Assembly (NCBI GenBank): GCA_041485885.1
Contig: JBGPKL010000005.1
Coordinates: 19,343-43,342 of the forward strand
Source of the DNA: Sulfurifustaceae bacterium
Lineage (GTDB): Bacteria; Pseudomonadota; Gammaproteobacteria; Acidiferrobacterales; Sulfurifustaceae
Length of the DNA stretch: 24,000 nt
Direction: 5' to 3'
A model generated the notes under the pieces. That model was not told the origin of the DNA, searched no databases, and worked only from the letters and a program-made list of their open reading frames with translations. Numbering within the stretch: position 1 is the first letter of the stretch; each line of letters opens with the position of its first letter. The translations under genes and the position numbers were made by a program. Below, piece by piece: positions 1,992-21,406 of the stretch.

Positions 1992-2216
1992 CGCGCGAGT
2001 GCACACGAAAGCAATCGACTCGCAGAACCGAAGAACACGGCGCGAGCGCGGTGCGGTTCCATCCGAACGGCCGTTCGAGCCATGCGATCAAGCCGGATGG
2101 CCGGAGACCAAACCCGGACATCTGCTTTACGTCTTCCACTGTTCTTTCTGCCGGCTACACCGCTTTCCTATCTCTGATCCGTTCCATCCACCCTTCGATG
2201 GAACAGACCTTGAACC

Positions 2217-2275
2217 AACAACAGAAAAGAAATAATCGCCTACTGCATGGACATTATCTGTCCATCAAGTAGGCG
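2217..2275 (-). terminator. Rho-independent terminator closing the cus-like operon and the small gene.
   Basis: Nested hairpin cgcctact-gc-atggaca-ttatc-tgtccat-ca-agtaggcg at 2237-2275, overlapping the last codons and stop. On the minus strand it is followed by ATTATTTCTTTTCTGTTGTT. Confidence 0.6.
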
Positions 2276-2463
2276 TGTACGCGCCAGCAGTCGTTAATAT
2301 TCATCAAAGCCGGCTTGGACATCAGCTTCGCATGCATCTTGAAGCAGACCTCCTTCTTGGCGTCATTGCCGGATTGCTTGTCTTGCGCAGCGTAGGCGCC
2401 CGCCGACATAACGGCAAACAATGCCGCGGCGATCGAAGCGATGATATGGAAAGGCGTTTTCAT
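2254..2463 (-). CDS. Small secreted protein of 69 aa with a signal peptide. The mature part is rich in Cys, His, Met and Lys. Function unknown.
   Basis: An internal ATG at 2463 is preceded by AAGGGA. The sequence MKTPFHIIASIAAALFAVMSAGAYA/AQDK fits a Sec signal. The mature part is KEVCFKMHAKLMSKPALMNINDCWRVHAYLMDR. The opposite-strand ORF 2275..2517 looks spurious. Confidence 0.6.
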   Translation of the reverse strand: MKTPFHIIASIAAALFAVMSAGAYAAQDKQSGNDAKKEVCFKMHAKLMSKPALMNINDCWRVHAYLMDR

Positions 2464-2698
2464 GGTTTTCCCTTTAGTAGGTTGATTGCGGTTCAAAACA
2501 GACTTCTGACTGCCTGATAGAGCACGCTGCACCCTCCGACTCTTTGGTGAGACAGGTTTACTTCATTCTCGTGGGCGGATGAGTGTCAGACTAGTGGCTC
2601 GTTTTATTTTCCTGTTCCTTTCTCTAATAAGTTGAGGAACGTCAGGGAAGTCGGGCGCAGACAGGCGCCTGTGCAAAAGCTACGCGTCCTTTTCGACA

Positions 2699-5600
2699 TT
2701 AGTCCACCCTATGCCGTCGGTTTTGCCACAACAGGTACGCCGCCGGAATCACCGCGAGGGTGAGCACCGCCACGCTCAGCATGCCACCGACCATCGGCGC
2801 GGCAATGCGCTGCATCGCCTCGGAGCCGGCGCCGCTGCTCCAGAGGATCGGGAGCAAGCCCGCGATGATCGCGGTGTTGGTCATGATGATAGGACGGATA
2901 CGCATCAGCGCGCCTTCGGTAACCGCGTCGTGGATGTCCTTGCGTGTCAGCTTTTCGCCGCGCTGCGCGCGCGCCTCCGCGCGATGCTTCAGGGCCTGAT
3001 CGAGGTAGGCGAGCATCACCACGCCGATCTCGGCGGCCACCCCCCCGAGCGCGATGAAGCCCACGGCCACTGCGACCGACAGGTTGTAGCCGAGCAAATA
3101 CAACAGCCAGAAACCCCCGACCAGGGCGAGCGGCAGGGTGATGACGATAATGAGTACCTCCATCGCATTGCGGAAGTTGAGATACAAGAGGAACAAAATG
3201 ATCGTCACGGCGACCGGCACCACAATGGCAAGCCGTTCCATGGCACGCTGCAGGTACTCGTACTGACCGGACCAGATTAGCGAGTAGCCGGGCGGCAGCT
3301 TTACCTTCTCCGCAACCGCCTTCTGCGCCTCGGCGACATAAGACCCGATGTCGCGGTCGCGGAAGTCCACGTAGATCCAGCCGGACAGACGCGCATTCTC
3401 GGAGCGAATCATGTCGGGGCCGTCGGCGATGCGCACCTCGGCCACCTCAGCGAGCGGAATCGGCACCCCGCTCATGGTAACTATCGGCAACACCCGCAGC
3501 CGCTCGAACGAGTCGCGAATATCGGCCGGGTAGCGCAGGTTCACCGGGTAGCGCTCGCGCCCTTCAACCGTTTCGGTCACGTTCATCCCACCGATCGCCG
3601 TCTCTACCGTATCCTGGATGTCCATGATGTTCAGCCCGAAGCGTGCCGCGCGATTGCGATCGATCTTAATGTCCACGTAGCGCGCGCCGGTGAGTCGCTC
3701 GGCGTACACCGAGGTCGTGCCCGGGATCGTGCGCATGACCTCCTCGATCTCGCGACCGACGCTCTCAATGGTCGCCAACGATGAACCGGCGACCTTGATT
3801 CCCACGGGGGTACGGATGCCGGTGGTAAGCATGTCGATGCGCGTCTTGATGGGCGGCACGAAGACGTTCGACAGTCCCGGGAACTTCACCAGCTCGTTCA
3901 TCTCGGCGACAAGTTTTTCCGTGGTCATGCCCGGGCGCCACTCGGACTTGGGCTTAAGCTGCACCACGGTTTCGAACATGGACAGCGGCGCGGGATCGGT
4001 CGCGGACTCGGCGCGTCCCGCCTTGCCGAATACCGTCGCTACCTCCGGGAGAGTTTTCAGTGCCCGGTCGGTCTGCTGCAGCACTTGTTGCGCCTTGCCG
4101 GAAGAGAGTCCCGGTAGCGTCGTTGGCATGTAGAGGAGATCGCCCTCGTACATATCCGGCATGAATTCGGTGCCGACCTTCATCACCGGAATGGCGCCGA
4201 GCGCGATGAGCACGGCGGCGACTCCCATCACCTTCTTCGGGTGCACCAGTACGAGTTCGATGAGCGGGCGGTAGGCTCTGAGCAGAATGCGGTTGACGGG
4301 GTTTTCGTGCTCGGATCGGATGCGGCCGCGAATGAGGTAACCCATGAGCACGGGCACCAGCGTCACCGACAGCCCGGCCGCGGCGGCCATGGCGTAGGTC
4401 TTGGTGAAGGCGAGCGGCGAGAACAGCCGGCCTTCCTGCGCCTGCAATGCAAACACCGGGAGAAAACTGACGGTGATGATGAGCAGCGAGAAGAACAGCG
4501 GCGGGCCCACTTCCTCGGTGGCTTTGCGGATAATCTCCCAGCGGTTTTTCTCGGTGGCTTGCTCGCGCTCAAGATGCTTGTGCGCGTTCTCGATCATGAC
4601 GATGGCCGCATCCACCATGGCGCCGATGGCGATGGCGATGCCGCCGAGTGACATGATGTTGGCGGTGATGCCTTGAGACGTCATGACGATGAAGGCCACG
4701 AGGATGCCGATCGGAAGCATGAGGATGGCGACGAGCGAGGAACGCAGATGGAGCAGGAACACCACACACACAAGCGCCACGATGGCGAACTCTTCGATGA
4801 GCGTGCCGGTGAGGTTTTTCACCGCGCGCTTGATCAGCCCCGAGCGGTCGTAGGTCGGAATGATCTCGACGCCTTCGGGCAGGCTATTCTTTAAACTCGC
4901 AAGCTTGGCTTTGACGGCCTCGATCGTGGCGAGCGCGTTCTGGCCGTGGCGCATGATGATGATGCCGCCGGCGACCTCGCCCTCGCCGTTCAACTCGGTG
5001 ATGCCGCGGCGCATCTCGGGACCGAGACGGATCTCCGCCACCTGCTCGAGGCGGATCGGCATACCCGCGGAGGTGACACCGAGCGTGATCGCGCGCAGAT
5101 CCTTCAGGCTCTGAATGTAGCCGCGCGTGCGGATCATGTACTCAGCCTCGGCCATTTCGATCACCGAACCGCCCGATTCTTGGTTGGCCTTCTCGATCGC
5201 CATGCGCACGTCGGCAAGCGTGAGCCGATACGCGCGCAGCTTCACCGGGTTTACCACGACCTGATATTGCTTCACCATGCCGCCCACGGAGGCAACCTCG
5301 GATACGCCGGGTACCTTGCGCAACTCGTATTTCAGGAACCAGTCTTGCAGTGAACGCAGTTGCGCAAGATCGTGTTTGCCGCTGCGGTCCACCAGGGCGT
5401 ACTCGTACACCCAGCCGACGCCGGTCGCATCCGGTCCGAGCGCCGGGCGCGCACCGCGCGGCAGCCGCGGCAGCACCTGCGAGAGGTACTCGAGCACGCG
5501 CGAGCGCGCCCAGTAGAGGTCGGTGCCGTCCTCGAAAATGATGTAGACGAACGAGTCGCCGAACATGGAGTAGCCGCGCACCGTGACCGCACCCGGCACC

Positions 5601-5824
5601 GAGAGCATGGCGGTCGCCAGCGGATAGGTGACCTGGTCCTCGACAATCTGCGGTGCCTGGCCGGGGTAGCTGGTCTTGATGATGACCTGCACGTCCGACA
5701 GATCGGGTATCGCATCGAGTGGCGTGCGCGCGACTGCGAAGATCCCGCCGGCGACGAGCATCGCCGTGATGAGCAGCACCAGGAAGCGATTGTTGAGCGA
5801 CCAGCGGATGACGGCGGCGATCAC
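2699..5824 (-). CDS. cusA: CusA/CzcA-family heavy-metal efflux RND permease, Cu(I)/Ag(I) type.
   Basis: 1041 aa, matching CusA length. The three-Met relay context is conserved as remembered from E. coli CusA (GDLLYMPTT, PLSMFETV, TRIDMLTTGI). It has a 12-TM RND architecture. The GTG start overlaps the cusB stop (GTGA at 5821-5824). Confidence 0.93.
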   Translation of the reverse strand: MIAAVIRWSLNNRFLVLLITAMLVAGGIFAVARTPLDAIPDLSDVQVIIKTSYPGQAPQIVEDQVTYPLATAMLSVPGAVTVRGYSMFGDSFVYIIFEDGTDLYWARSRVLEYLSQVLPRLPRGARPALGPDATGVGWVYEYALVDRSGKHDLAQLRSLQDWFLKYELRKVPGVSEVASVGGMVKQYQVVVNPVKLRAYRLTLADVRMAIEKANQESGGSVIEMAEAEYMIRTRGYIQSLKDLRAITLGVTSAGMPIRLEQVAEIRLGPEMRRGITELNGEGEVAGGIIIMRHGQNALATIEAVKAKLASLKNSLPEGVEIIPTYDRSGLIKRAVKNLTGTLIEEFAIVALVCVVFLLHLRSSLVAILMLPIGILVAFIVMTSQGITANIMSLGGIAIAIGAMVDAAIVMIENAHKHLEREQATEKNRWEIIRKATEEVGPPLFFSLLIITVSFLPVFALQAQEGRLFSPLAFTKTYAMAAAAGLSVTLVPVLMGYLIRGRIRSEHENPVNRILLRAYRPLIELVLVHPKKVMGVAAVLIALGAIPVMKVGTEFMPDMYEGDLLYMPTTLPGLSSGKAQQVLQQTDRALKTLPEVATVFGKAGRAESATDPAPLSMFETVVQLKPKSEWRPGMTTEKLVAEMNELVKFPGLSNVFVPPIKTRIDMLTTGIRTPVGIKVAGSSLATIESVGREIEEVMRTIPGTTSVYAERLTGARYVDIKIDRNRAARFGLNIMDIQDTVETAIGGMNVTETVEGRERYPVNLRYPADIRDSFERLRVLPIVTMSGVPIPLAEVAEVRIADGPDMIRSENARLSGWIYVDFRDRDIGSYVAEAQKAVAEKVKLPPGYSLIWSGQYEYLQRAMERLAIVVPVAVTIILFLLYLNFRNAMEVLIIVITLPLALVGGFWLLYLLGYNLSVAVAVGFIALGGVAAEIGVVMLAYLDQALKHRAEARAQRGEKLTRKDIHDAVTEGALMRIRPIIMTNTAIIAGLLPILWSSGAGSEAMQRIAAPMVGGMLSVAVLTLAVIPAAYLLWQNRRHRVD

Positions 5825-6756
5825 GGTTTTTTCTCCTCGCCCTCGGCAGGTTGCATACGCGAGAAGCTCGCGCGCACATTTGCTTCGGAGTCGATCAGGA
5901 ACTGGCCCGAGGTCACTACGGTATCGCCTTCCTTGATGCCCTTGAGAATCTCGACCCAGTCGTCGCTCTCAACCCCGGGAACCACCTCGACCGATTGAAA
6001 GCGCCCCTCGCTTAAGCGCAGTACCACGGCGTTGCGCTGGCCGGTACGGATGAGCGCCTCGCGTGGAATGAAGAGCGACCGCCTGCCTGCGGGCGCGCCC
6101 TGGATCACGACTTCGGCCAGCATGTTGGGTTTGAGCGTGGCGTCCGGCCGGTTCAGTCGCACGCGTGCCTTGAGCGAGCGCGGGCCGATGTCGATGTCAG
6201 ACTCCACGCGGTCGACGGCGCCGGGAAAAACGCGCCCCGGCACGTCGGACACGCGGACCTCGGCCTGCTGGCCCGGGCGCACCAGGTTTACGTCGCGGTC
6301 GAAGACGTCAACCAGCACGGCCATACCCTGGTCATCGCGGAACAGATAACCCGTCGTCACCATCCGGCGCGGCGGCGCGCCGCGCGTGACCGTGTGGGTC
6401 CGTACGCCGAGGTTCTGCACGATCTCGGGGCGGACGGTGACGATGGGCGTCCCGTCCGTGGGCCCGCCAGTCGCTCCCGGCGTCCCGCCTCCCGCGACAC
6501 TAGTACTTCCCTGTGCGTCGTCGTACACGGGCACCATGTCCATGTTCATGGGCGACTTGCCGGGCTTGTCGCTCTTGAAGCCTGGGATCATCGGGTCGGT
6601 CCAATAGAGAATCTTGCGTTCCTTTTTCGCGCCCTCGGTCGCGGTCGCTGCCCCCTGGGACTTCTTTTCAGACAGGGCATACCACGCCCCGATGGCGGCG
6701 GCACCGAGTGCGGCGACTAACAGCACGGCGATCACGAGAGTGTGTTTGCGATTCAT
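5821..6756 (-). CDS. cusB: CusB-like periplasmic adaptor (membrane fusion protein), unusually short at 311 aa.
   Basis: N-terminal ILYWTDPMIPGFKSDKPGKSPMNMDMVPVY matches the CusB Cu-binding N-terminus (FWYDPMYPNTRFDKPGKSPFMDMDLVP). The C-terminus ends with SGQFLIDSEANV (CusB: SGLFLIDSEANI). An ATGA overlap with the upstream OMP gene lies at 6753-6756. Confidence 0.85.
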   Translation of the reverse strand: MNRKHTLVIAVLLVAALGAAAIGAWYALSEKKSQGAATATEGAKKERKILYWTDPMIPGFKSDKPGKSPMNMDMVPVYDDAQGSTSVAGGGTPGATGGPTDGTPIVTVRPEIVQNLGVRTHTVTRGAPPRRMVTTGYLFRDDQGMAVLVDVFDRDVNLVRPGQQAEVRVSDVPGRVFPGAVDRVESDIDIGPRSLKARVRLNRPDATLKPNMLAEVVIQGAPAGRRSLFIPREALIRTGQRNAVVLRLSEGRFQSVEVVPGVESDDWVEILKGIKEGDTVVTSGQFLIDSEANVRASFSRMQPAEGEEKKP

Positions 6757-8003
6757 GGCGCATCTCCGGTGAGATACAGAAGTTCCGCGTGCGTCTTGGC
6801 GAGATCTACGCGCAGGCGCAGGAGTTCGAGGTTGGTATCAAACTCCTTCAGACGCGCCTCGCGCAGCGTGGTCTGCTCGCGCGCAAAACCCGCGATCGTG
6901 ACCTGTGTCTCGCGGCGGATGGCGGGCAGCAGTTGTTCCTCGATAATCTTGGCGCGCGCCGCGAGCGCGTCGTACTCGGCGCGCATTGCCGCATACATGG
7001 TCTCCACCTCGCGGCGCTTGTCTTCGGTTTCGAGGCGCGCACCGGCCTCCAGCGCCTGCTTTTCGGCAAGCCGCCGATCTTGACGCTTGGAGCGAAAGAT
7101 CGGCAGGTCGAGCGTGACCATGGCCGTCACCATGTTGGGGCGCTCCGTGCCGTCTGGCATCGGCCGGCGGAAACCGTAGGAAAGATCCAGCATCACCCCC
7201 GGTTTGTAGTCCTGACGCGCCATGTCCACCTCGGCGCGCATGGTCTCGAGCTCGGCCTGCGCCGCCAACCATTCCGGATGGCGCGTGGGGTCGAAGTCGC
7301 CGGGAAGAGCGGACAAGGCCGGCAGCGCCTCGGGCAGAGGCGCTTGGGCGGCCGCGCCGATGAAGCGCTGAAGCTGCGCGCGCAGTCGCGCGGCCTGTGC
7401 CCGCAGCATCGGTTCGCGCTCATTCACCCGCGCGAGCACTTGGCGCGCCACGAACACTGTGCGCTGACTTTCCTGGGCGGCGCGGTAACGACCCTCGGCG
7501 GCTTCCAAGTCGCGCCTCGCGAGCTGCCGCGACTCCTCGAGAATTTTCAACGACTGATTCGCGAGATAAAGATCAAACCAAAAGGCACGAACCTGTCGGA
7601 GCAGGTTGCGGCGCCCGATCTCGAGGCGCGCCTGCTCGCGTGCAAGCTGCTGCTCGGCGCGGCGTGTGCGGATGTTAAGCGTGTCTCCGGGCGGAAACGC
7701 CTGGCGCACGCCGATCATCTTCATCGTCATGTCCTCCTCGCGAAAGCTGAACGAGTTCGCCGGTACGTTGATGGCCCCGAGCGTGAGCTGCGGATCGGGG
7801 AGCCGGCCTTCGTAGGTCACGCGCTCGGCGGCGGCGGCAACGCTCGTGTGTGCGCGCGCAAGCCCCGGCGCCTGTTCGAGCGCCAGGCGTTCTCCTTCGG
7901 CCAGCGACAACGGTGACTGCGCCATGGCGGTTAGCGGCGCGCCGAACGAAAGTACAGACATTAATAAAACCCCCGGACACGAAAACACGCGGCAAAAAGA
8001 CAT
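6753..8003 (-). CDS. TolC-family outer-membrane efflux protein (CusC position), with no lipobox.
   Basis: Two-repeat OEP-like sequence rich in L, A, R, Q and E. Signal peptide MSFCRVFSCPGVLLMSVLSFGAPLTAMA/Q. I prefer the ATG at 8003 because GGAGGG lies 6 nt upstream. The alternative ATG at 8015 is the one used in the ORF track. Confidence 0.85.
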   Translation of the reverse strand: MSFCRVFSCPGVLLMSVLSFGAPLTAMAQSPLSLAEGERLALEQAPGLARAHTSVAAAAERVTYEGRLPDPQLTLGAINVPANSFSFREEDMTMKMIGVRQAFPPGDTLNIRTRRAEQQLAREQARLEIGRRNLLRQVRAFWFDLYLANQSLKILEESRQLARRDLEAAEGRYRAAQESQRTVFVARQVLARVNEREPMLRAQAARLRAQLQRFIGAAAQAPLPEALPALSALPGDFDPTRHPEWLAAQAELETMRAEVDMARQDYKPGVMLDLSYGFRRPMPDGTERPNMVTAMVTLDLPIFRSKRQDRRLAEKQALEAGARLETEDKRREVETMYAAMRAEYDALAARAKIIEEQLLPAIRRETQVTIAGFAREQTTLREARLKEFDTNLELLRLRVDLAKTHAELLYLTGDAP

Positions 8004-8108
8004 GTGTCCCTCCATTCATTTCGTTAAACAGTTTCTGCATCCTCCGAGTAGACAAACACAAAGCACAGCACCAGACCGCCGGATGGCAGCCCGGACGAGG
8101 GCTACGGT

Positions 8109-9160: not shown

Positions 9161-10219
9161 ATGGCTGACCTTCGATACATCAGACCAAATCATTTGTGTC
9201 GTCGGGCAAACCGGGTGCGTGCATTGGTTGTTGTCCCTGGGATACCGACCGCCTTGTGCTTGGGTCTCATCCATCCGTTGCTTATGTTGCCAACCGGCAT
9301 CGCGTTATTGGCGATTTGGAATCGACAACGTCGACTGCTCAAGGGGGCACAAGGTGAAGACTTGGCGCTGGGAGTTCCAACTGCGGTACCGGGGCCACTC
9401 TCCCGCCTTGGGGACGACTATATGGTCTTCAACCAACTACGTGTCCCTTGGCGAAACACGACATTGGAGCTGGACTTTGTGGTCGTAGGACCAAACGGGG
9501 TCTTCGATATTGAGTGCAAACACCTTGTCGAGGAAATCGTCGGCCGCGACGTCGACCAGCAGTGGGTTCAGCGCAAGCGCGGACGCGGCGGTGTACTGAT
9601 CACCAGGGGAGCTCGCAATCCGGTAGTTCAGGTGCGGCGTTCGGCCCGTGCACTCGCGACCTACCTCCGCTCGATAGGGATAAATGTATCGGTGCACGCC
9701 GTGGTGGTCTTCACGCACCCGGTAGCAAAGCTCTCGGTATCGTCTAATTCTGTACCGGTTCTGACACTACCGCAACTCGCAGATCATATCGCGAATCTCC
9801 ACGGTCCGTTTCAACAACAAGGAGCGGTTATGCGAGCACTGAAAGTCCTGCGAGATACCGAGCCGAGCAGCGTCGCCATTGGAACTGCGCAACGGAAAGC
9901 GGTGTCGATGGCCGGCGGTCCCAAACACATTAGCTACTTCATGCGCGATATCGTGCCGGAGCGTGTCGAGGTGTTCATGAAACACGACATCCGGGCTGCT
10001 ATGCGCAAACAACATGGATCGGCGCCAGCGACTTCACAACGGTCGACAACAGCGTCTCCTCCGGCAATACCACGGACATACAGACCTCGACGACAACTAC
10101 GCGTAATCACCTTTGCTCGCTCGGGAGAAAAACTACGGCGTAGAACCGTAAGGACTTATAGATGCGAGGAGACTATCGAAACGGAGAAATCAAACGAAAG
10201 CGAGATAGGACGCGACTAG
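9161..10219 (+). CDS. NERD (nuclease-related) domain protein with two N-terminal TM helices and a basic low-complexity tail.
   Basis: GEDLALGVP..LGDDYMVFNQLRVPWRNTTLELDFVVVGPNGVFDIECKH...NPVVQVRRSARALATYL...HAVVVFTHP fits the NERD pattern with PD-(D/E)xK-like D...ExK residues. The hydrophobic segments are ALVVVPGIPTALCLGLI and LLMLPTGIALLAIW. Confidence 0.8.
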   Translation: MADLRYIRPNHLCRRANRVRALVVVPGIPTALCLGLIHPLLMLPTGIALLAIWNRQRRLLKGAQGEDLALGVPTAVPGPLSRLGDDYMVFNQLRVPWRNTTLELDFVVVGPNGVFDIECKHLVEEIVGRDVDQQWVQRKRGRGGVLITRGARNPVVQVRRSARALATYLRSIGINVSVHAVVVFTHPVAKLSVSSNSVPVLTLPQLADHIANLHGPFQQQGAVMRALKVLRDTEPSSVAIGTAQRKAVSMAGGPKHISYFMRDIVPERVEVFMKHDIRAAMRKQHGSAPATSQRSTTASPPAIPRTYRPRRQLRVITFARSGEKLRRRTVRTYRCEETIETEKSNESEIGRD

Positions 10220-10235
10220 CTCCCTACCGACTTGG

Positions 10236-10583
10236 TCAACGTCCCTCGCCCCGCCCTCTTTCGCGCTGGCCGTCTCTGTCTATCGGCCGAAGTTTCGCCA
10301 ACAACTCGCGCCGCTGCCTGGAGGGCATCCGATCGAGCAAAAGTACGATCTCAGCGATGTCCTCCTCACGAATATAGAAGTAGCTGGTCGGGCATCCGAG
10401 GACTTTCGCCAAGCGCTCAGCGGTCCGGAAGTCGGGTGTCCGCTTGCCTTGCTCGTACTGATTGATCCGTGGGCTGCTCGAAAGTACGTCGATGCCCGCA
10501 GCGATGCCGAGCCCACGCTGGGAAAGCCCGGCCCTGACGCGGGCCTGTTTGAGGCGTCTTGCTATCGGAGGGTCGCGATCCAT
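10236..10583 (-). CDS. XRE-family helix-turn-helix transcriptional regulator.
   Basis: RRLKQARVRAGLSQRGLGIAAGID...SPRINQYEQGKRTPDFRTAERLAKVLGCPTSYFY is a classic HTH_XRE fold. I prefer the ATG at 10583 (115 aa). The ORF track begins at TTG 10607. Confidence 0.8.
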   Translation of the reverse strand: MDRDPPIARRLKQARVRAGLSQRGLGIAAGIDVLSSSPRINQYEQGKRTPDFRTAERLAKVLGCPTSYFYIREEDIAEIVLLLDRMPSRQRRELLAKLRPIDRDGQRERGRGEGR

Positions 10584-10647
10584 GAGCAGTTTCTTATTTC
10601 TGCTCAAAATGGTCAGGCTTTTCGCATTGACCCTGGTACTAACATTT

Positions 10648-10671
10648 CGTTAGACTTTAATTCCGTTAGAC
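10648..10671. promoter_or_regulatory. Candidate operator: direct repeat CGTTAGAC x2 in the XRE-divergent intergenic region.
   Basis: CGTTAGAC occurs at 10648-10655 and 10664-10671, 16 bp apart. It lies between the XRE start and ORF 10688, with a TTGACC hexamer at 10626-10631. Confidence 0.3.
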
Positions 10672-10687
10672 CAAGGTCATCGGACTC

Positions 10688-11065
10688 ATGACTACCGAGG
10701 ATGAAGAAGACCCTGGCGGGTACGACGAACGTGGTGAAACCTATCACCACGACTCGGTGAGTGACCGAATTCAATTCATCAAGGAGAGTCCCGGCTACCG
10801 AACCCGCCGCACCGTGTTTAGGTCGGTCGGCGTCGACATCGACAAGGTAGAGACGGAAAGAAAGCTCTACGCACTCGATCGCCTGCACCGGGATCTTTTC
10901 TTCGAGGTGGTTACGGCGCGGATCATGTCTCGGCCGTCTACCAATCTCGAAAACGAGATCCTGAAAGCCACCGTTCTCAGCGAATACGAAAAGGCCAACG
11001 CCATTGCCAGGCGTCTCCGTCGCCGCAGGACCCTTGGACTTCGACCCGTTCCACATCGTGATTGA
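10688..11065 (+). CDS. Hypothetical protein of 125 aa, with an acidic N-terminus and a basic C-terminus.
   Basis: It is divergent from the XRE gene and lies 43 nt upstream of the next plus-strand gene. An antisense ORF at 10613..11056 is also open. I prefer the plus strand because the extra 3' part of the antisense ORF uses TTA, CTA and TCA codons and covers the repeat-bearing AT-richer intergenic sequence. No family recognised. Confidence 0.4.
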   Translation: MTTEDEEDPGGYDERGETYHHDSVSDRIQFIKESPGYRTRRTVFRSVGVDIDKVETERKLYALDRLHRDLFFEVVTARIMSRPSTNLENEILKATVLSEYEKANAIARRLRRRRTLGLRPVPHRD

Positions 11066-11108
11066 AATTCACACAAGTCTCTTAAATCAACAAAGACAAG
11101 GAGGAGTC

Positions 11109-11669
11109 ATGCGTTATGTCGGATCAGTGCTGGTTCTCCTGTGGGGTATTGCATCTACCGCACAAGCCGCCGCGCCCCTCTCGTTATTTGGTGTAAATCT
11201 AAAGGACGCTGAGCGCACAACGTTGCGTCAGGCGATCAAACAAGCCGGTGTCAAAGTCGAACGCGAAGACGATCGTTTCTGGCACGACGTGTATGACCCG
11301 AAAGCCGTGCTCGATGGCTCAAGCAAGCTAACCGTTGGCTACGAGGACAAAACAGGGCGTTTTGCGGTTGCCGCTTACACCTTCCCCGCCTTCGTGGACC
11401 CCGGGAAGGTTTCGGAAGTTGTTGACATGGTAAGCCGTAAGTACGGGAAGCCCTCTGAAATTGTCGGTTCCTACCAAATAGGCGCCGTCACGGCGACGTG
11501 GCAATTAGAGAAAGGCATGGGGATTGAGGTAAGCCGCGGGTGGCCGAATACGACTGTGACCTTAAAGTATTTTGACCGCGCGCGGTTTGTTCAGCTGCAG
11601 AAGGAAATACGGGCCCAAGAGGAGCAGGATCGCAACTCAAAGGCCAAGGAGCAGAGCAAGGCGTACTAA
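11109..11669 (+). CDS. Hypothetical secreted protein of 186 aa with a signal peptide.
   Basis: ATG at 11109 has the strong SD AAGGAGG 5 nt upstream. MRYVGSVLVLLWGIASTAQA/AAP fits a Sec signal. The C-terminal tail is Lys/Glu/Gln-rich. No family recognised. Confidence 0.7.
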   Translation: MRYVGSVLVLLWGIASTAQAAAPLSLFGVNLKDAERTTLRQAIKQAGVKVEREDDRFWHDVYDPKAVLDGSSKLTVGYEDKTGRFAVAAYTFPAFVDPGKVSEVVDMVSRKYGKPSEIVGSYQIGAVTATWQLEKGMGIEVSRGWPNTTVTLKYFDRARFVQLQKEIRAQEEQDRNSKAKEQSKAY

Positions 11670-11703
11670 CAAGGATCAATACGATGAACTACCGACACAC
11701 TTA

Positions 11704-11734
11704 CTCGCCGTGAGTTAGGGGGGCTCACGGCGAG
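11704..11734. terminator. Strong hairpin between convergent genes. It may act as a bidirectional terminator, but there is no clear U-tract.
   Basis: A perfect 11-bp stem ctcgccgtgag / ctcacggcgag with the 9-nt loop ttagggggg. It lies between the stop at 11669 (plus strand) and the stop at 11782 (minus strand). Confidence 0.4.
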
Positions 11735-11781
11735 CACATCTACGATGGACCAAATGTCAGCAACAGTTGACCTGTTGCGCC

Positions 11782-13053
11782 TCACTTGTCGCTCTCGGCC
11801 GGATTGCTGGACCCAGCGTTCCTCGGTGTAAGAAACGTGCCCAGATAGGCGGAGCTCACCTTACGCCTACCGTGGCCATAGAGCTTCGCAATCTGTTGAC
11901 GCGCCTGCTTGTCCCCCTCACGTTCTGCTGGCAGCGGCGGATGTCCTCCTCGCACCGGACTTTTTCTCCCTGTTAGCTTCTCGTAGAGGTCATTCCCAAA
12001 GCCGTGACGCAAACCATGCGGCACCAAACCCGTCTTGCGAGAAATTCCGTGGCGCCGACAAATACGGTAGAAACGCGCGCGCCATGCGGCAAGAGAATAC
12101 TTCGCGGGGATCATTGAGCCGATGGGGGCGTTTGCGAGCGACTTCGCAAAGTCTAGTGCCTTGCGCTGATCGCTGGTGTTGATCGGTTCATCGCGCTCCA
12201 AACCTCCTTTGGTCCCGTGGGCCACCTGGAGAGCATCCCCACCATCATTGTCATCCGGGCGCAGTTGCCAGGCCTCCTGAGCACGCAGGCCGAATACTGC
12301 CTGAAGCAGGAGACAGGTTCCTGCGTGACTATCATCTGCTAGTACCTCGGCGATACGCTCGGACGGATCAACATCCTTGGCGGTCCAGCTCTTATCTGTC
12401 GTGGCTACCCGTATTCTGGCGGCACGCGTTGGATCGACCAGGTAATAGCTGATATCACGTACCAGTCCGCGCTTTTCGATCCAGCGCTCTAGCGTCCGCA
12501 GGAACGAGTGATACTTCTGCAAAGTCGGCGCCGAATGGCCGCGGGTTTCCCACGACCGAACCAGATAGCGGATATGTTTCCCCCGCAGGTGGTGGACATC
12601 GCGAACTTTGTATCCGCCGTCGTAAAGGTCGGCGATACAGCGACTGAAGAATTGACGTCGCTCGCGCTGAGTAGCTGCGCTAATTATCCTCGCGCCCTCG
12701 ATGTCGCGATCGTTGCGGGCTTTGAGAAGCACGTGTAGCGAGCGTCGACAGGAGTTTCGTGCTCCCCCGCGTTCGCGCCCTTTTCGTACAGGTCTTTCCT
12801 TAGCGTGTTGTGCTGACGGAATGTTCTCCGCGGACACCGACTGCTGGCCATGCTCGACTGAATTTCTATTTCTCATACGTTCCTCTACATGCGGGAGATC
12901 CCGCCAAAGCAAATTGTTTATCGGCTGCATCGAGTGCAATGCAGGAAGAAATGGGCTCGTTTGCGCAAGTGAGCGCAGGCGTTCGTTTAGTGCTGGTTCG
13001 GCTTCCGACCGTCCGTATTGCGGGTACGATTGAATGTGGCTTGCACTAGCCAC
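11782..13053 (-). CDS. Tyrosine-type recombinase/integrase of the plasmid/ICE-type 'integrase N-terminal + Integrase_1' family.
   Basis: The core-binding part is RRQFFSRCIADLYDGGYKVRDVHHLRGKHIRYLVRSWETRGHSAPTLQKYHSFLRTLERWI. Catalytic-type residues are GLRAQEA (R), HGLRHGF (HxxR) and LYGHGRRKVSSAYLG (H...Y). The true start may be internal, for example M60 at ~12876. Confidence 0.8.
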   Translation of the reverse strand: MASASHIQSYPQYGRSEAEPALNERLRSLAQTSPFLPALHSMQPINNLLWRDLPHVEERMRNRNSVEHGQQSVSAENIPSAQHAKERPVRKGRERGGARNSCRRSLHVLLKARNDRDIEGARIISAATQRERRQFFSRCIADLYDGGYKVRDVHHLRGKHIRYLVRSWETRGHSAPTLQKYHSFLRTLERWIEKRGLVRDISYYLVDPTRAARIRVATTDKSWTAKDVDPSERIAEVLADDSHAGTCLLLQAVFGLRAQEAWQLRPDDNDGGDALQVAHGTKGGLERDEPINTSDQRKALDFAKSLANAPIGSMIPAKYSLAAWRARFYRICRRHGISRKTGLVPHGLRHGFGNDLYEKLTGRKSPVRGGHPPLPAEREGDKQARQQIAKLYGHGRRKVSSAYLGTFLTPRNAGSSNPAESDK

Positions 13054-13365
13054 TTGCCGTTAGAGGTTTCAAAAAGGATTGCCTGAACGAGGAACACGCT
13101 GAGCCCAACCGACCTGCCACCGGTGGTATGCGTGTTTGCGTCCTCTTCACCAGGCAACCGCGGCAGAGCGCAGTGGCGTCGGTGAACGGCCTTCGGCCTC
13201 GGTAAACGCAGCCTCGATCAGGATTTGCGGGATAGGCCCGCTGTTATGTGCGACACAAGGTCGTTTTGGATGTAGGAGACACGTTCGACGCACGGCTCGA
13301 GACCGTGCTGTTAGAGCGCATCGCGATGTAAAAGGCGGCGAGGAAAGTACCGCCTCTGTAGGAGC

Positions 13366-13403
13366 TGCGACTGCCAAAGTCGCATTTGTATGCTGATTGT
13401 TTT
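13366..13403 (+). terminator. Orphan terminator-like hairpin in the ORF-free stretch.
   Basis: tgcgact-gccaa-agtcgca (13366-13384) is followed by TTTGTATGCTGATTGTTTT. There is no credible upstream plus-strand gene. Confidence 0.3.
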
Positions 13404-14232
13404 GGGCGCCCAGCTAGCGCTTCCGGTCTTGCAACCCACCGGCAGGGTTTTGAAACCTTCGGTCCAGCGACCACCGTACTGGTCCGTTGACGCTTAAATT
13501 ACGCCTTCGATAGCAAGAGGTCAAACATTTTTCGTCCTGCAACTTTTTGTTTCTCTGCTGAAGATGTTTGGTCTGCGCTGCGGCCACCTGCAATTCAATG
13601 TGTTGCGTATCGCTGCGCGGGCGTCTCTCTTGCAACGACGAGTCGAGTCATGCATTTGCGGTGTGACGTAGCCTCGGACTTTCGCGCCGAACCTCACCGC
13701 GCTAAGGATGCTTTACTTCTTTGTTACTTATTCGCTGCTTACCTAGTATGACGGCGGGAAGATTGCCGATGCTGATCAACGTAACCACATGCTCACCTTC
13801 AAACAGGGAATGCAGAACTACTTTGCGACAACATGACGACGTGCTCGAGAGCGACAAATGGCGCGGTCGACATCGGCGCGACATCGACGATCGAAAGTGC
13901 CTCATGTCGTTGAACCCGACGAACCACTATTGCATTTTAAATTTGCTTGTGATGATATGAATGCGTTCCTTAAATCGTATCTTGAAGGAACTTACATCGC
14001 CGGCCACTCAGTGGCCGATTACGAAATAGCGCAGCGAGGATCCTCACCTGCTGCGTTCTGCTAGAAATAGATAGCGCGGCAACTAGCAACTGCGGCCGCT
14101 TATCTCGAAAACAGTCCCCTTAGAGATTTCCACAGTGATTCGCCGCGTCGTTCGCGCGCTGCGTCTCGCTTTGGCGTTTTCGCATTCTTTTTTTCCTGAC
14201 TACCTGTTCAACCGAGTTTCTTGGAGGAATAA

Positions 14233-14617
14233 ATGACTACCGTGATTCGTGCAATCGACGTTGGCTTCGGCAACACCAAATTTTCATGGTCTCTTTCGCT
14301 GGGAGGCGAAGTGCAGTGCAAAGTTTTCCCATCCATCGCGCCGCTGGCCGCCGCCTTCGATATATCTGGCGGCGTTATCGGGAGGCGGGATACCACCGTT
14401 GTTCTAGTCGACGGGAATGCGTATGAAATCAGGCCCGATGTCGCTAAGGCATTGGGCACGCGTCGGCGGTGGCGCGCAATTTTTCAGCGACGCGATAAGA
14501 CGGCGCTCCCCTTCCCATGCCGTAACGATCTCTCCAGATGCGGTGTTCTCGAACGTCCGTGGATTTCAATTGGCTGGCGAGGAGCTGATGCGTCGGCGCC
14601 AGGCTGATGCCGCATGA
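14233..14617 (+). pseudogene. ParM/StbA-like actin-type segregation ATPase remnant, with a large internal deletion and a frameshift.
   Basis: The N-terminus IRAIDVGFGNTKF...CKVFPSIA...RRDTTVVLVDGNAYEIRPDV carries the actin-fold phosphate-1 motif. From ~14450 a different frame reads VGGGAQFFSDAIRRRSPSHAVTISPDAVFSNVRGFQLAG, which resembles a ParM-family C-terminus. About 200 residues of a typical ~320-aa protein are missing. GGAGGA lies before the ATG. Confidence 0.65.
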
Positions 14618-14877
14618 ACGCTCTTCGAATAAACCTGTTCATACGCCCGGACGTCTCGCCGAAGTTACATGACGCACTGTCCAAGCTTCCGCCGCGGCCA
14701 CGAGCCGAACTCTTGCGCAAGATTGCTGAGATCGATTTGCAGGTTACAGTGTTCCCACCGGACCACATCGCTGCTAGCAATCACAGTGCGATCGCGGCAG
14801 GACAGATCTCAACGCCGGCAGCTGAAGGTAGTCTGGGGAGCGATCTTATGAGCGTCGTCGAAAAGGACTTCCTGTAG
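14614..14877 (+). CDS. Hypothetical protein of 87 aa in the ParR/StbB position, possibly a partition adaptor.
   Basis: Its ATG overlaps the stop of the shifted ParM C-terminal frame (ATGA at 14614-14617). The N-terminus is MNALRINLFIRPDVSPKLHDALSKLPPRPRAELLRKIAE. No confident family assignment. Confidence 0.5.
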   Translation: MNALRINLFIRPDVSPKLHDALSKLPPRPRAELLRKIAEIDLQVTVFPPDHIAASNHSAIAAGQISTPAAEGSLGSDLMSVVEKDFL

Positions 14878-14889
14878 AAGGCGAAAGGC

Positions 14890-15138
14890 ATGAACGGTCA
14901 TGATACTGCACTCACCTCCCTCGTGCTGAGTCACGAGGAGATCTGTGTGGTTACGGGCCGCAAACGTCATACGGCACAGGCGCGCGCGCTTGCCGAGATG
15001 GGGATTTCATTTCGCGTGAGGCCAGATGGGTTCCCTCTGGTCTCACGCGCGCACTTCCACCAGGCGCTTGGTACGGAGATGTCGACGAGGAAACAGCGCG
15101 CAATAGAACCGAATTGGAGCGCCATCGATGCCGCGTAA
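14890..15138 (+). CDS. DUF4224-like small protein in the excisionase/accessory position upstream of the integrase.
   Basis: LSHEEICVVTGRKRHTAQARALAEMGISFRVRPDGFPLVSRAHF resembles the DUF4224 pattern often found just 5' of phage integrases. It overlaps the integrase ATG by 11 nt. Confidence 0.6.
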   Translation: MNGHDTALTSLVLSHEEICVVTGRKRHTAQARALAEMGISFRVRPDGFPLVSRAHFHQALGTEMSTRKQRAIEPNWSAIDAA

Positions 15139-16188
15139 ACGCACGCGCAAGGAAAACAAACCGCTCCCCGCACGTTGGCGCTTCCGACACGGCGCTTACT
15201 ACTATGACGTGCCGTCCCACCTGCGCGAGCAATGGAACGGCAAGCGCGAATTTCGACTCGGCACCACGTTACCAGAAGCATATGCCGAGTGGGCCAAGCG
15301 ACTGAAGACCCGTGCAGACGTTCGAACGATCGGGCAGTTACTGGATCGCTACGCGTTAGAGGTTGTACCAACCAAAGCACCCAAGACGCAGGAAGAAAAT
15401 ACGCGCGCTATCGCGAATCTCAGAGCGGTCTTCGGCGAAATGCTCATAGAGATATTAAGCCGATTCACGCGTATCAATACCGCGACCGACGCGGCAAGAC
15501 GGCGCGAACCGCAGCCAATCGTGAGCTGGAAGTCTTGTCGCACTCATTTACGAAAGCCATCGAATGGGGTTACCGGGAAGATCATCCCATGATCGAAGGC
15601 AAGTTCCGCAAGCTACCGACTCCACCACGAACCCGGTATGTCGAAGACTGGGAGATCGCTGAAGCGCTTTCGCTCGAGCCGCGGCGCCGGAAAGGCAGCC
15701 TCCATGCCGTTCGCGCCTACATCAAGATCAAGTTGCTGACCGGCCTTCGCCGCGGCGATCTCCTGCGCCTTCGTACCTCCGATTTAAGGGACGACGGTAT
15801 TCACGTCGAGCCGCACAAGACGGCGAAGACGACCGGAAAACGCATCGTCATCGAATGGACTCCAACATTGCGCCAAGCAATCGACGAAGCGAAGGCCGCC
15901 CGACCCGTGGACATCGGACCATACCTGTTCTGTACGAAACGGGGTGATCCGTACGTGAGCGAAGATGGCAGAGCCAACGGCTGGGATTCGATGTGGGGTC
16001 GTTTCATGGATCGAGTACTGACGGAAACGAAGATAAAGGATCGATTCACGGAACATGATCTGCGTGCCAAGTGCGCCTCAGACGCAGAGACTCTTGAACA
16101 TGCACAACAGCTACTCGCGCATGCCGACAGTGCGACGACTCGCAGGGTCTATCGGCGGCGCCCAGAAAGAGTGAAGCCCCTCAAGTGA
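15128..16188 (+). pseudogene. Phage-type tyrosine integrase disrupted by a 1-nt deletion-type frameshift near 15449-15452.
   Basis: The N-terminal ORF 15128..15592 reads ...NLRAVFGEMLIE and then turns to nonsense. The ORF in the other frame continues DIKPIHAYQYRDRRGKTARTAANRELEVLSHSF...LLTGLRRGDLLRL (R)...HDLRAK (HxxR)...LLAHADSATTRRVY (H..Y). Restoring one G in GAG(G)AT gives a continuous 353-aa protein. The gene ends 117 nt from the tRNA-Arg 3' end. Confidence 0.8.
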
Positions 16189-16240
16189 CCCGTAGTGGCA
16201 AGGGGTAGCGATCGGCCGAACGCCACTCAGCAGTAGCGCG

Positions 16241-16269
16241 ATATCGGACAACTCTGAAAATATCGGACA
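16241..16269. repeat. 10-bp direct repeat ATATCGGACA x2 between the integrase and tRNA-Arg.
   Basis: ATATCGGACA occurs at 16241-16250 and 16260-16269. Confidence 0.5.
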
Positions 16270-16305
16270 GTGCGCCTTTTTTGGGCACCGTAAGCGACTG
16301 AATAT

Positions 16306-16382
16306 TGGCGCGCCCGGAGAGATTCGAACTCCCGACCACCTGGTTCGTAGCCAGGTACTCTGTCCAGCTGAGCTACGGGCGC
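16306..16382 (-). tRNA. tRNA-Arg (anticodon ACG), 77 nt with encoded CCA.
   Basis: The reverse complement is GCGCCCGTAGCTCAGCTGGACAGAGTACCTGGCTACGAACCAGGTGGTCGGGAGTTCGAATCTCTCCGGGCGCGCCA. The acceptor stem is GCGCCCG/CGGGCGC, the anticodon loop CTACGAA and the T-arm GGGAG-TTCGAAT-CTCTC. Confidence 0.95.
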
Positions 16383-16459
16383 GAGGGGGCAATTATAAAT
16401 GACGACGACGAGACTGTCGTGGATGAGTGAAGACCAGATGATTGCTTATGAAGAAGAGA

Positions 16460-16553
16460 TGGCGGAGAGAGAGGGATTCGAACCCTCGATGGGACTTTTG
16501 ACCCCATACTCCCTTAGCAGGGGAGCGCCTTCGACCAACTCGGCCATCTCTCC
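16460..16553 (-). tRNA. tRNA-Ser (anticodon GCT), 94 nt with a long variable arm and encoded CCA.
   Basis: The reverse complement is GGAGAGATGGCCGAGTTGGTCGAAGGCGCTCCCCTGCTAAGGGAGTATGGGGTCAAAAGTCCCATCGAGGGTTCGAATCCCTCTCTCTCCGCCA. The anticodon loop is CTGCTAA and the T-arm GAGGG-TTCGAAT-CCCTC. Confidence 0.95.
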
Positions 16554-18445: not shown

Positions 18446-21406
18446 CTAAAGACGAGAGCTCACCCACTCGGAAACCGCTTTCAACGCGCGCTCGAGCCCC
18501 GCCGGATCGTTACCTCCCGCCTGCGCCATGTCCGCCCGTCCGCCGCCTTTGCCACCGATTTGCGCCGCCACGTGATTCACTAGTTCCCCGGCGTTTACGC
18601 GCGTCGTTAGATCCTTAGTCACTCCGGCGATTAGACTCACCTTGCCGTCCTGGATCGATGCCAACACGATGGCAGCGGGCGCGAGCTTGTCTTTATAGTG
18701 GTCCACGGCCTCGCGCAACACTTTTACATCCGCCCCATCCAACTGAGCCGCGAGCACGCGCACGCCTTTGATTTCTTCGACCTGGTCGAGCAATGACGTT
18801 CCGCCGCCGCTCGCGAGCTTCGCCTTCGTCTGTTCGAGTTCCTTCTCGAGACTCTTCGAGCGCGCTTGCAACTGCTGAACCTTGTCGACCACCGAGGCGC
18901 GGTCGGCTTTGAGCAGGCGCGCGATGTTGTCCAGCTGCTCTTGCTGCCTACGTATCCATGCTTCGGCGCCCGGACCGGTAACAGCCTCGATGCGACGTAC
19001 GCCGGCGGCGACGCCGCCTTCGGAAACGATCTTGAAGAGCCCGATGTCGCCGGTACGGCGCACGTGCGTACCGCCGCAAAGCTCGACCGAGAAATCGCTC
19101 AAGCGCAGCACGCGCACTTTCTCTTCGTACTTCTCGTCGAACAGCGCCATGGCGCCGCTCGCCTTCGCTTGCTCGAGATCCATCAAGCGCGTCTCCGCCT
19201 CATGATTAGCGCGAATCTGCTCGTTTACCAGATCCTCGACGCGCTGCAATTCTTCCGTTGTCAGTGGCTGCGGATGCGAAAAGTCGAAACGCAGATAGTC
19301 AGGATGCACCAGCGACCCTTTCTGGGTAACGTGCCGTCCCAACACCTGCTGTAGCGCGGCGTGCAACAGATGCGTCGCCGAATGGTTGAGACGAATCTTT
19401 TGGCGACGCTCCTGGTCCACGACCGTCTCCACGCGATCGTCTACACGGATTTGACCCTTCTCAACTCGTCCCTGGTGGACGTAAACTTGTCCGCGCTTCT
19501 GCGTGTCTTCGACCTGAAACACAGCGCCACCCACACGCAATACACCTCGATCACCGACCTGACCGCCGGATTCGGCGTAAAACGGCGTTCTGTCGAGGAC
19601 GATATTTCCTTGCTCGCCTGCGCTGAGGGCACCCGCCTGAGCAAGGTCCGCTCCGCGTGTTATCTGCAACACCTTACCCTCATCACGTAGGCGTTCGTAG
19701 CCAGTAAATTGCGTTGGGTGATCAACGGTAACGGCACCGATCTCAATCAATTTGAACACCGAAGCCGCACGGGCCCGTTCGCGTTGCGCTTTCATCTCGT
19801 GCTCGAAACCAGCCATGTCGATTTTCACATTGCGCTCCAGGGCGACATCGCGCGTGAGATCCACGGGGAAGCCATAGGTGTCGTAGAGCTTGAAAACTAC
19901 ACTGCCACTTAACGGCAACTGTTTCGGATCAAGCACGTCACAAGTGATCGATATTTTCTTCGAATCTGGGATGCTAATACCAGAAAATGCTTTACGCACT
20001 TGCTCATGCATCTCGGGAGCAACGAGAAACACCAACCGAAGCGAAATAGTTTCGTCGCCACGCGCTGCTGCGATTCGCTGCTCAATCTCTCGGTTGGCCT
20101 CGGACGCCACAAAGGCGCTTATATTGCGACCCGTCGGTACGGAGATTATCTCCCAGTATTGGCGGTCGGTTTCATTGTCGCTACGTGATGTAAATAGCAA
20201 TGAAGCCTTCCCGGATTTTGGCACCGCGCTGTGAAAATGTTTGAGACCTGATGAATGACTCTCAGCATATGTGGAAGATCTGGCCTCATCCGAAAGCTCT
20301 GATTCCAATATTTGCAGACCTTGAGACAACGTCTCGGTGAAGCGCTCTTCTTCCTGCTTAAGCACGCCCTCAATCTGCGAGCGCTCACTATTCAGTTCCG
20401 GATATGCGCCACCCATCTGCTCACATAGCGGTCCGACCAATTTATAAAAGAAGGTTTCGGTTGCACCGACCTTGTGACCGTGCCGAACCGCGCGCCGAAT
20501 GATGCGACGCAAGACGTAGCCGCGGCTTTCGTTCGACGGAAACACACCGTCGGCGATGAGAACCGCGGCTGCGCGGATATGATCGGCAATCACGTTGAGC
20601 GAAGGGTTCTTGAGATCTCGCGTCCCGATAATCTCCGCCGCCGCTTCGCGCAGTGCCTGGAACAGATCGATATCGTAGTTGCTGTGCACGCCCTGCATCA
20701 CGGCGGCGAGCCGCTCCAATCCCATGCCGGTGTCGACAGATGGCTTCGGCAACGGCGTGAGTTTCCCGTCACGGTCGCGGTTGTACTGCATGAAGACGAG
20801 GTTCCAGAGCTCGACGTACCGATCGCCGTCCTCGTCCGGACTTCCGGGCGGACCGCCGCCGATGCCCGGGCCGTGGTCGTAGAAGATCTCGCTGCAGGGG
20901 CCGCAGGGACCGGTGTCGCCCATCGACCAGAAATTCGACGCTTCGCCCAAGCGGCCGAAGCGTTTCGGATCGACCTCGATCTCCTTCAGCCAGACGTCGG
21001 CGGCTTCGTCGTCGTCGGTGTAAACCGTTACCCACAACCGCTCGGGCGCTAGGCGCAGCTCCTTAGTCAGGAATTCCCAGGCGTACTGAATCGCCTCGCG
21101 CTTAAAATAATCGCCGAAGCTGAAATTACCGAGCATCTCGAAAAAAGTATGATGTCGCGCGGTGTAACCCACGTTCTCAAGATCGTTGTGCTTACCGCCC
21201 GCGCGCACGCATTTCTGACTGCTCGCCGCGCGTGCGTAAGATCGTTTGTCGGTTCCCAAGAAGACATCTTTGAATTGCACCATGCCCGCATTGGTAAAAA
21301 GCAGCGTCGGATCCTTTGCGGGCACGAGCGAGCTGCTCGAAACGACCTGATGGCCATTCCGCTTGAAGTAGTCGAGGAAGACGTTGCGTATTTCGTTACT
21401 TGTCAT
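18446..21406 (-). CDS. alaS: Alanine--tRNA ligase, 986 aa, carrying a ~122-aa in-frame insertion.
   Basis: The start at 21406 gives [22 protein letters not shown]. Also present are [36 protein letters not shown], the editing-domain HSATHLLH and CGGTH motifs, and a C-Ala domain ending [12 protein letters not shown]. Confidence 0.95.

Follow-up and report, generated by a model that had tools for sequence, protein, structure and literature searches.

How does an essential gene come to hold more than a hundred codons that nearly all its relatives lack, and what becomes of these codons in the protein? The question is raised by a stretch of 24,000 nucleotides (hereafter the window, meaning the whole of this stretch; GenBank assembly GCA_041485885.1, contig JBGPKL010000005.1, positions 19,343 to 43,342) from a Sulfurifustaceae bacterium of the Gammaproteobacteria. 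Its alaS gene, which encodes alanyl-tRNA synthetase (AlaRS), contains a segment that a first-pass annotation had picked out as an in-frame, low-GC insertion of about 122 codons. In our reading, these 366 bp are probably a coding cassette, that is, a presence/absence polymorphism which is passed between alaS alleles by homologous recombination and which encodes a dispensable passenger or accessory domain. The gene and the insert are located as follows.

18446..21406, minus strand: alaS, 986 amino acids from the ATG of MTSNEIR, stop codon included; supported by Pfam, AlaRS matches in the PDB, a gene call and synteny
19925..20290, minus strand: in-frame insert of 122 codons, D373-P494; unmatched in the PDB and Pfam, gapped in relatives, low in GC at third codon positions (GC3), and the sole open frame

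The identity of the gene is clear from its Pfam matches (tRNA-synt_2c at 3e-214, tRNA_SAD and DHHA1), from an identical 986-residue gene call on the JGI contig Ga0534150_0000113, and from the usual gene order recA-recX-alaS-lysC-csrA. The extra residues stand out by every route of alignment. When the protein is searched against the PDB with phmmer, residues 1-369 pair with residues 1-369 of a bacterial AlaRS structure and residues 499-548 with its residues 379-428, which leaves about 120 residues over. The Pfam tRNA-synt_2c match is broken into two stretches by the insert, and a MAFFT alignment places a gap opposite the segment in 10 of 10 close relatives, and the segment does not align to ordinary AlaRS residues. 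Furthermore, 143 residues separate the two flanking conserved motifs here, as compared with 22-24 residues in 61 of 65 related genome loci and 23 residues in 112 of the 117 nearest related AlaRS proteins. The insert is confirmed as a real in-frame addition to essential alaS which solved AlaRS structures and nearly all close relatives lack. Its place is a surface loop of variable length in the helical tRNA-recognition domain. The first-pass coordinates hold and are kept, with boundaries (D373-P494, 20290-19925) accurate to about 2 residues.

Where else does such an insert occur? Full-length protein searches recovered carriers among AlaRS proteins of 982, 986 and 987 residues. At the same site, protein P0030 (locus L083) has an insert 55% identical to that of the window and P0125 (L084) one that is 38% identical. 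A metagenome scan with the P0030/P0125 alignment found both types again, in L085 and L086, and P0129, from a third Hainich H51 assembly, is a one-residue variant. Two further inserts lie at this position: one of 121 residues at the same site in P0108 (987 residues), and one of 113 residues at the same loop in a metagenome-assembled genome of Lysobacteraceae, a different order of Gammaproteobacteria (L006, JBIJAD010000360.1). Both might be threaded by eye onto the strand and helix pattern predicted for the window insert. The L006 insert also gives a sub-threshold Pfam match (E = 0.058) to SpoU_sub_bind, an RNA-binding alpha/beta domain. Lastly, P0033 (889 residues; L087) keeps a 23-residue remnant, GKAPTGEGNVFQS...LSTMYLLEPQSADT, similar to both ends of a P0108-type insert; by its sequence, it looks like such an insert minus its middle, still AT-rich. 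All related insert copies that were found occupy this one alaS site, and an insert or remnant is present in about 4% of near relatives.

Searches with the insert by itself found less. An insert-only protein search and a search with a four-insert alignment returned no match and missed even P0030 and P0125, although these two are themselves representatives in the database searched; phmmer, run exhaustively against 1.84 billion representatives, found no match either, the insert-bearing AlaRS proteins having probably been collapsed under insert-free representatives at 50% identity; and a first metagenome scan and a viral scan with the insert also gave nothing. These insert-only nulls are largely technical, because of a corrupt cluster, the missed known carriers and the 50% clustering. 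The cluster in question is a 90%-identity cluster of unrelated, retroelement-like fragments of 33-56 residues (MIEEIMEVFMDDFSVYGKTF..., representative 48 residues) in which the window AlaRS has been filed, and this looks like an indexing error that hides the protein from similarity searches. The exhaustive phmmer result nevertheless argues that no other protein family holds a close relative of the insert domain. A separate length variant is seen in another Sulfurifustaceae AlaRS, P0014, which has a 17-residue low-complexity insertion (AVQGSTNAASAGRAGAA) in a different loop, near residue 263 (alignment A1, columns 264-280).

The composition of the insert sets it apart from the gene around it. 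Its GC content is 0.50 and its GC3 0.49-0.50, against 0.59 and 0.70 for the rest of alaS; no other 366-nt stretch of alaS falls so low (minimum GC 0.519, minimum GC3 0.549), and the synonymous-codon score of the insert is beyond the range of every other such stretch. The low GC reported at first pass is therefore genuine, and the contrast is sharper at third positions. It is repeated in all five hosts for which DNA is available, given below as GC3 of the insert and of the rest of alaS. The insert is AT-richer than its gene in each of them, and no host of matching composition was found.

Window: 0.50 and 0.70
L083 (P0030): 0.39 and 0.73
L084 (P0125): 0.30 and 0.53
L087 (P0033 remnant): 0.39 and 0.81
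L006: 0.44 and 0.82

Despite being AT-rich, the segment stays open in the alaS frame, as had been noticed at first pass, and this is unlikely to be a matter of chance: the frame remains open in only 0.17% of shuffles of the insert. The alaS frame is the only open frame in all three homologous inserts (window, P0030 and P0125), among which there is no conserved antisense or alternative-frame open reading frame, and no internal promoter was found on the alaS strand in the AT-rich stretch. By the Nei-Gojobori method, dN/dS between the window and L083 is 0.16 in the insert and 0.13 in the rest of the gene, and that of the insert rises to 0.3-0.4 for more distant pairs, values which are all rough because dS is near saturation; additional records that could have supplied closer pairs are identical or one residue apart. 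Between the window and P0030, dN is 0.33 in the insert and 0.28 in the backbone. Since the frame is kept across 45-62% protein divergence and dN/dS is below 1, the comparison of sequences indicates that the insert is under purifying selection and is translated as part of AlaRS.

How, then, is the insert distributed, and with what does it travel? Carriers are nested at no fewer than four separate places among insert-free relatives and are not each other's closest kin. The window backbone is 85-87% identical to insert-free AlaRS of the Sulfurifustaceae-like type; to the carriers P0030 and P0125 its identity is only 55-78%. The first-pass annotation had named as a contrary outcome a domain universal across a broad clade and with host-like composition. 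What was found is a patchy set of carriers and a GC3 of 0.49-0.50 against 0.70. Sliding identity, a matrix of identities by segment and neighbor-joining bootstraps together delimit a tract around the insert.

19457..20569, minus strand: approximate recombinant tract, residues ~280-650

Within this tract, residues ~280-372 and 505-650 are 82-88% identical to the Sulfuricaulis/'Muproteobacteria' type of AlaRS and only 56-75% identical to the backbone type; outside it, residues 1-270 and 665-986 show the reverse affinity, for the Sulfurifustaceae-like backbone type. Neighbor-joining bootstraps agree: segments A (92/100) and C (100/100) group with the backbone type, and the flank segment B (100/100) with the Sulfuricaulis/'Muproteobacteria' type. 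Because the flanks of the insert group with another clade than the rest of alaS does, the insert appears to travel with its flanks by homologous recombination.

A close relative without the insert, P0009, is informative in this respect. It is 92% identical to the window AlaRS in segments B2 and C, 86% in A and 69% in B1. It shares the imported downstream flank with the window, is of native type upstream, and has no insert, so that a recombination breakpoint lies at the insert. On its contig, L082, nucleotide identity to the window is ~90-92% throughout lysC and csrA, uniformly ~90% in lysC, and in alaS it ranges by segment from 60% to 96%. Local drops occur elsewhere in the gene as well, with 61-65% over codons 1-65 and 76-79% over codons 666-755, beside adjacent segments at 93-96%. 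A similar pattern is seen in another carrier: P0108 is 94-96% identical to the insert-free P0043 in the outer segments and 77-80% in the flanks. The patchwork seen between the window and L082 suggests a recombination hot spot at alaS in these bacteria.

The insert itself is predicted to have two parts.

20210..20290, minus strand: N-terminal tether of the insert, residues 373-399; low pLDDT (the per-residue confidence of AlphaFold2), weak helices predicted
19931..20209, minus strand: predicted folded core, residues 400-492, beta1-beta2-alpha1-beta3-alpha2-beta4 (AlphaFold2)

AlphaFold2 run on an alignment of the three homologous inserts gave a mean pLDDT of 74.8, a predicted template modelling (TM) score of 0.68 and core blocks at 80-92, and a single-sequence run gave the same beta-beta-alpha-beta-alpha-beta topology with block pLDDT of 67-86; these models rest on very shallow alignments. 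The insert is accordingly modelled as a conserved tether of ~27 residues followed by a putatively autonomously folding alpha/beta domain of ~93 residues. Among the three homologues, 41% of positions are invariant in the tether and 23% in the core, and the tether may for this reason be more than a passive linker. No family match rose above noise in Pfam, NCBIfam, PHROGs or PADLOC, nor did any sequence or profile search of the PDB with the insert, and Foldseek found no match with E < 0.001 in the PDB or BFVD. The best, non-significant Foldseek match has E = 0.025 and a TM score of ~0.35. The top matches at this level are mostly restriction-endonuclease-like folds (Zip2-Spo16, which is XPF-like, EcoO109I, Can2, the Rpb5 N-terminal domain and HamA). 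A (D/E)xK motif is missing from the conserved strands, including beta3 (LxLVFLxxP), and the sequence shows none of the GIY-YIG, HNH or LAGLIDADG signatures. The fold and profile searches proposed at first pass thus deliver a predicted domain to which no family or fold is assigned.

The site of the insert is close to the residues by which AlaRS reads its tRNA. In the E. coli enzyme, Asp400, Tyr399 and Gly403 touch the G3:U70 pair via the minor groove, and the D400A mutant is almost inactive; Asn303 works on the major-groove side (PMC6055181). Numbering against E. coli-like AlaRS sets the equivalent residues in the window as follows.

19871..19885, minus strand: Y508-D509-T510-Y511-G512, the G3:U70 minor-groove motif, equivalent to E. 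coli Tyr399, Asp400 and Gly403
20531..20533, minus strand: N292, equivalent to E. coli Asn303, the major-groove reader of U70; inside the imported segment

The end of the insert, P494, is 15 residues ahead of D509. N292, Y508, D509, T510 and G512 are invariant across the aligned insert-bearing and insert-free enzymes, and the catalytic and recognition apparatus looks intact for this reason. As all known recognition residues are intact, the enzyme is most likely active while carrying the extra domain, appended to a permissive surface loop.

Could the segment be removed before it matters, or have arrived as a known kind of mobile element? The first-pass annotation had drawn attention to an inverted repeat at the boundaries.

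19922..19929, no strand assigned: left arm of an 8-bp inverted repeat, TTTCGGAT; judged coincidental
20288..20295, no strand assigned: right arm of the repeat, ATCCGAAA; judged coincidental

The repeat is present as described, but it does not hold up as a mechanism: an 8-nt inverted repeat occurs at ~2.3% of site pairs chosen arbitrarily at this 366-nt spacing within the window, and no inverted repeat of 6 nt or more is found at the boundaries of the homologous inserts in L083 and L084. It is probably due to chance. An intervening sequence handled at the RNA level, also proposed at first pass, gains no support, and a group I or II intron is likewise rejected: the only match in an Rfam scan of the insert is at chance level (E = 7), its RNA fold is no stabler than that of shuffles (z = -0.73), and dN/dS below 1 indicates coding constraint in the alaS frame. 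The view that the segment is not an intein, in contrast, is upheld by the junctions of the three homologues, by Pfam and by the predicted fold. At the N-junction a Ser precedes the boundary (ELS, then D); at the C-junction, the three homologues share neither an Asn nor a His-Asn plus nucleophile (C-terminal regions including ILDPIRLPLSGE); no Hint or intein match was found for the insert in Pfam or NCBIfam; splicing blocks are absent; and the predicted alpha/beta fold with two long helices is not of the Hint type. The analogy to in-frame palindromic elements fails, as does that to a miniature inverted-repeat transposable element (MITE), since the insert lacks a palindromic structure and conserved terminal repeats, is unrepeated in 31 kb and encodes a proper structured domain. 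No second copy, and no internal AlaRS duplication, was found within 31 kb of the source genome. A plasmid or phage origin was dropped, as tblastn with the insert found no match in plasmid and phage collections.

What remains is a cassette that would be neither born in this lineage nor inserted in the manner of a transposon. The first-pass suggestion that the sequence is foreign or mobile, entered in frame and was then tolerated or domesticated comes closest to the evidence (patchiness, AT-richness, recombinant flanks), apart from its palindromic-element analogy. That of a lineage-specific accessory domain is right in so far as the segment is predicted to fold and is under purifying selection, and wrong in that the segment is neither confined to one lineage nor universal in one. 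In the account that we favour, the cassette would segregate as a polymorphism at one alaS site among Acidiferrobacterales-like gammaproteobacteria and at least one Lysobacteraceae genome, and it would be exchanged together with several hundred bases of flanking alaS; in the window, codons ~280-650 would have been imported from a different alaS clade. Loss would occur by the same homologous exchange, or by decay through internal deletion. We infer that the domain stays in mature AlaRS. Purifying selection would keep it able to fold, since a misfolded part of an essential enzyme would be costly, and the insert-free close relatives and the deletion remnant suggest that it is dispensable. The weakest step of this account concerns the role of the domain, which position and conservation suggest to be that of a dispensable passenger or accessory that at most modulates acceptor-stem binding or docks a partner. 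More speculatively, the tether may dock on AlaRS or on the acceptor arm and mildly modulate tRNA binding. Equally speculatively, the persistently low GC3 may reflect repeated recent transfer; alternatively, most recombination partners lack the insert, so that a rare, hemizygous segment might stay outside GC-biased gene conversion and go on accumulating AT-biased mutations.

Several points weigh against this account. The clearly homologous inserts number three, and repeat sightings of the P0030 and P0125 types may be re-assemblies of the same samples. The P0108 and L006 inserts have no detectable sequence similarity to that of the window (hhalign probability 0.08 each). The near-saturation of dS weakens the dN/dS estimates. 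All sequences are metagenome assemblies, and some of the mosaicism is possibly chimeric, a risk countered by the presence of the imported downstream segment in the independent assembly L082 as well. For the window and P0009, the direction of change, gain or loss, is uncertain. Finally, a second, insert-free alaS may exist outside the 31 kb.

The same observations can be read in other ways. An old accessory domain, acquired once in a gammaproteobacterial ancestor, inherited vertically, lost many times and endowed with a real tRNA-Ala function where kept, would explain why all carriers have inserts of the same site and size, with purifying selection and a conserved tether, and it predicts the co-divergence seen between the window and P0030, where dN in the insert is close to dN in the backbone. 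This history is nevertheless unlikely. The carriers are scattered among insert-free kin, one of which is ~90% identical in nucleotides in the neighbouring genes and another 96% identical in protein; many exact losses back to a 23-residue loop would be required, again implying recombination with alleles lacking the insert; the flanks conflict in phylogeny with the remainder of alaS; and GC3 has not shifted toward the host value in any of the five hosts. An adaptive module is a still less probable reading: the domain would alter access to the acceptor stem, as a shield against toxins or phages or as an aid to G3:U70 discrimination, and would spread by its benefit in some habitats. Its position 15 residues from D509, within an imported tract that also holds N292, suits this idea, as do the fast divergence of the inserts (15-55% identity, against 60-96% for the backbones), the purifying selection and the conserved tether. 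However, the searches tied the insert to no RNA-binding or immunity domain, dispensability is shown by the P0033 remnant and by close relatives that lack the insert, an insert or remnant occurs in the small fraction of near relatives given above, and there is no link to any antagonist.

A selfish, homing-type element that is kept in the protein is very improbable, as is the new class of element that it would represent. In this scheme, the domain or a partner would cut insert-free alaS, and repair would copy the insert with its flanks; the element would home like an intein but persist as a harmless appendage instead of splicing, with a cryptic nuclease for drive and cycles of invasion, decay, deletion or loss, and re-invasion. 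A fixed site in a conserved essential gene adjoining a substrate-binding motif, a sporadic distribution, flank import resembling co-conversion, GC below that of every host, a degenerate remnant and the mostly restriction-endonuclease-like Foldseek matches would all fit. But none of those matches is significant, Pfam, NCBIfam, PADLOC and PHROG contain no nuclease match, the nuclease motifs looked for are missing, as described, 93 residues are few for a sequence-specific endonuclease, and the fixed site, patchiness and flank transfer are also expected of ordinary, undriven recombination. Least credible of all is an artefact or a removed element, be it an assembly chimera, an intein, a group I/II intron or intervening sequence, or a Rickettsia-type in-frame MITE. 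The boundary repeat, the atypical GC and the metagenome source could be cited in its favour. It is contradicted by the record of the exact protein in both NCBI and JGI/IMG on two contigs, by homologous inserts in other samples, by the ordinary RNA fold and unconserved repeat, by intein junction residues that are not conserved and a fold unlike Hint, by the lack of further copies in the 31 kb and in plasmid and phage collections, and by dN/dS below 1 in the alaS frame.

The insert can also be placed among known systems. RNA polymerase beta and beta' carry polyphyletic insertions, namely the BEAN/HABAS insertions and the SI domains (PMC11515920). Like these, the AlaRS insert is an in-frame and (here by prediction) independently folding domain in a surface loop of an essential housekeeping enzyme, with the host fold intact on both sides and the same site used in more than one lineage. 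The RNA polymerase insertions, in contrast, use recognised folds and mark whole phyla or classes, whereas the AlaRS insert is rare, present or absent among near relatives, AT-rich in every host, flanked by recombinant sequence and of no recognisable fold or family. We know of no report of RNA polymerase insertions that differ from their host in base composition. A clade-wide, vertically inherited insertion domain is made unlikely as a model by the scattered carriers and by flanks that are incongruent with the rest of alaS. With inteins and mini-inteins, the AlaRS insert has in common a fixed site in a conserved essential gene near substrate-binding residues, a sporadic occurrence, host-unlike composition, co-transferred flanks and a degenerate remnant; it differs in having no splicing junctions or blocks and no recognisable endonuclease, in being alpha/beta and not all-beta Hint, and in being, as we infer, retained. 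The palindromic elements of Rickettsia are short and palindromic and occur in many copies per genome in many different genes. They resemble the AlaRS insert as extra in-frame DNA in an essential gene that is tolerated on the protein surface, but the latter is found at one gene and one site, without conserved terminal repeats or a stable RNA, and encodes a structured domain. The mosaic pbp genes of streptococci are products of interspecies homologous recombination, and aminoacyl-tRNA synthetase genes are also transferred horizontally. As in the mosaic pbp genes, an internal tract of an essential gene appears swapped for that of a diverged relative, with breakpoints within the gene and neighbours unaffected; unlike them, the alaS tract brings along an entire additional domain that relatives either have or lack, and it has no known selective agent. 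No account of an AlaRS insertion at this loop turned up in literature searches. In kind, the AlaRS insert is a lineage-sporadic insertion domain, to which the polyphyletic RNA polymerase insertions come closest among described phenomena, and in behaviour it resembles the population biology of an intein without the chemistry.

Two other features of the window were noticed. csrA is followed downstream by the genes for tRNA-Ser(GCT) and tRNA-Arg(ACG) (16306-16553, minus strand), and adjoining these are two tyrosine-integrase genes (11782-13053 and 15232-16188), a DUF4224 gene and a NERD-domain gene (9161-10219), so that 9161-16553 looks like a tRNA-targeted genomic island. In L088, a Hainich relative that also has an alaS insert, an integrase and a DUF4224 gene directly follow csrA. 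At the other side of the island, a heavy-metal efflux cluster (1050-8015) comprises a CDF transporter (1050-1991), an AcrB/CusA-like RND pump (2699-5824), a CusB-like fusion protein with a heavy-metal-binding domain (5821-6756) and an outer-membrane factor (6753-8015).

For the biology of AlaRS, the insert matters in more than one way. The enzyme reads its tRNA via a single base pair and a handful of invariant residues, and a domain of 120 residues placed 15 residues from the key Asp suggests how permissive this loop is. Natural pairs of alaS alleles with and without the insert could serve as a testing ground for whether appended domains tune G3:U70 recognition. More generally, a whole domain would here be a presence/absence polymorphism in an essential gene, moved about by homologous recombination and still unlike each examined host in composition. 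Standard searches easily miss such inserts, since clustering places carriers under insert-free representatives, and similar events may be more numerous than catalogues suggest. If a drive mechanism were true after all, the concept of the homing element would reach beyond inteins and introns.

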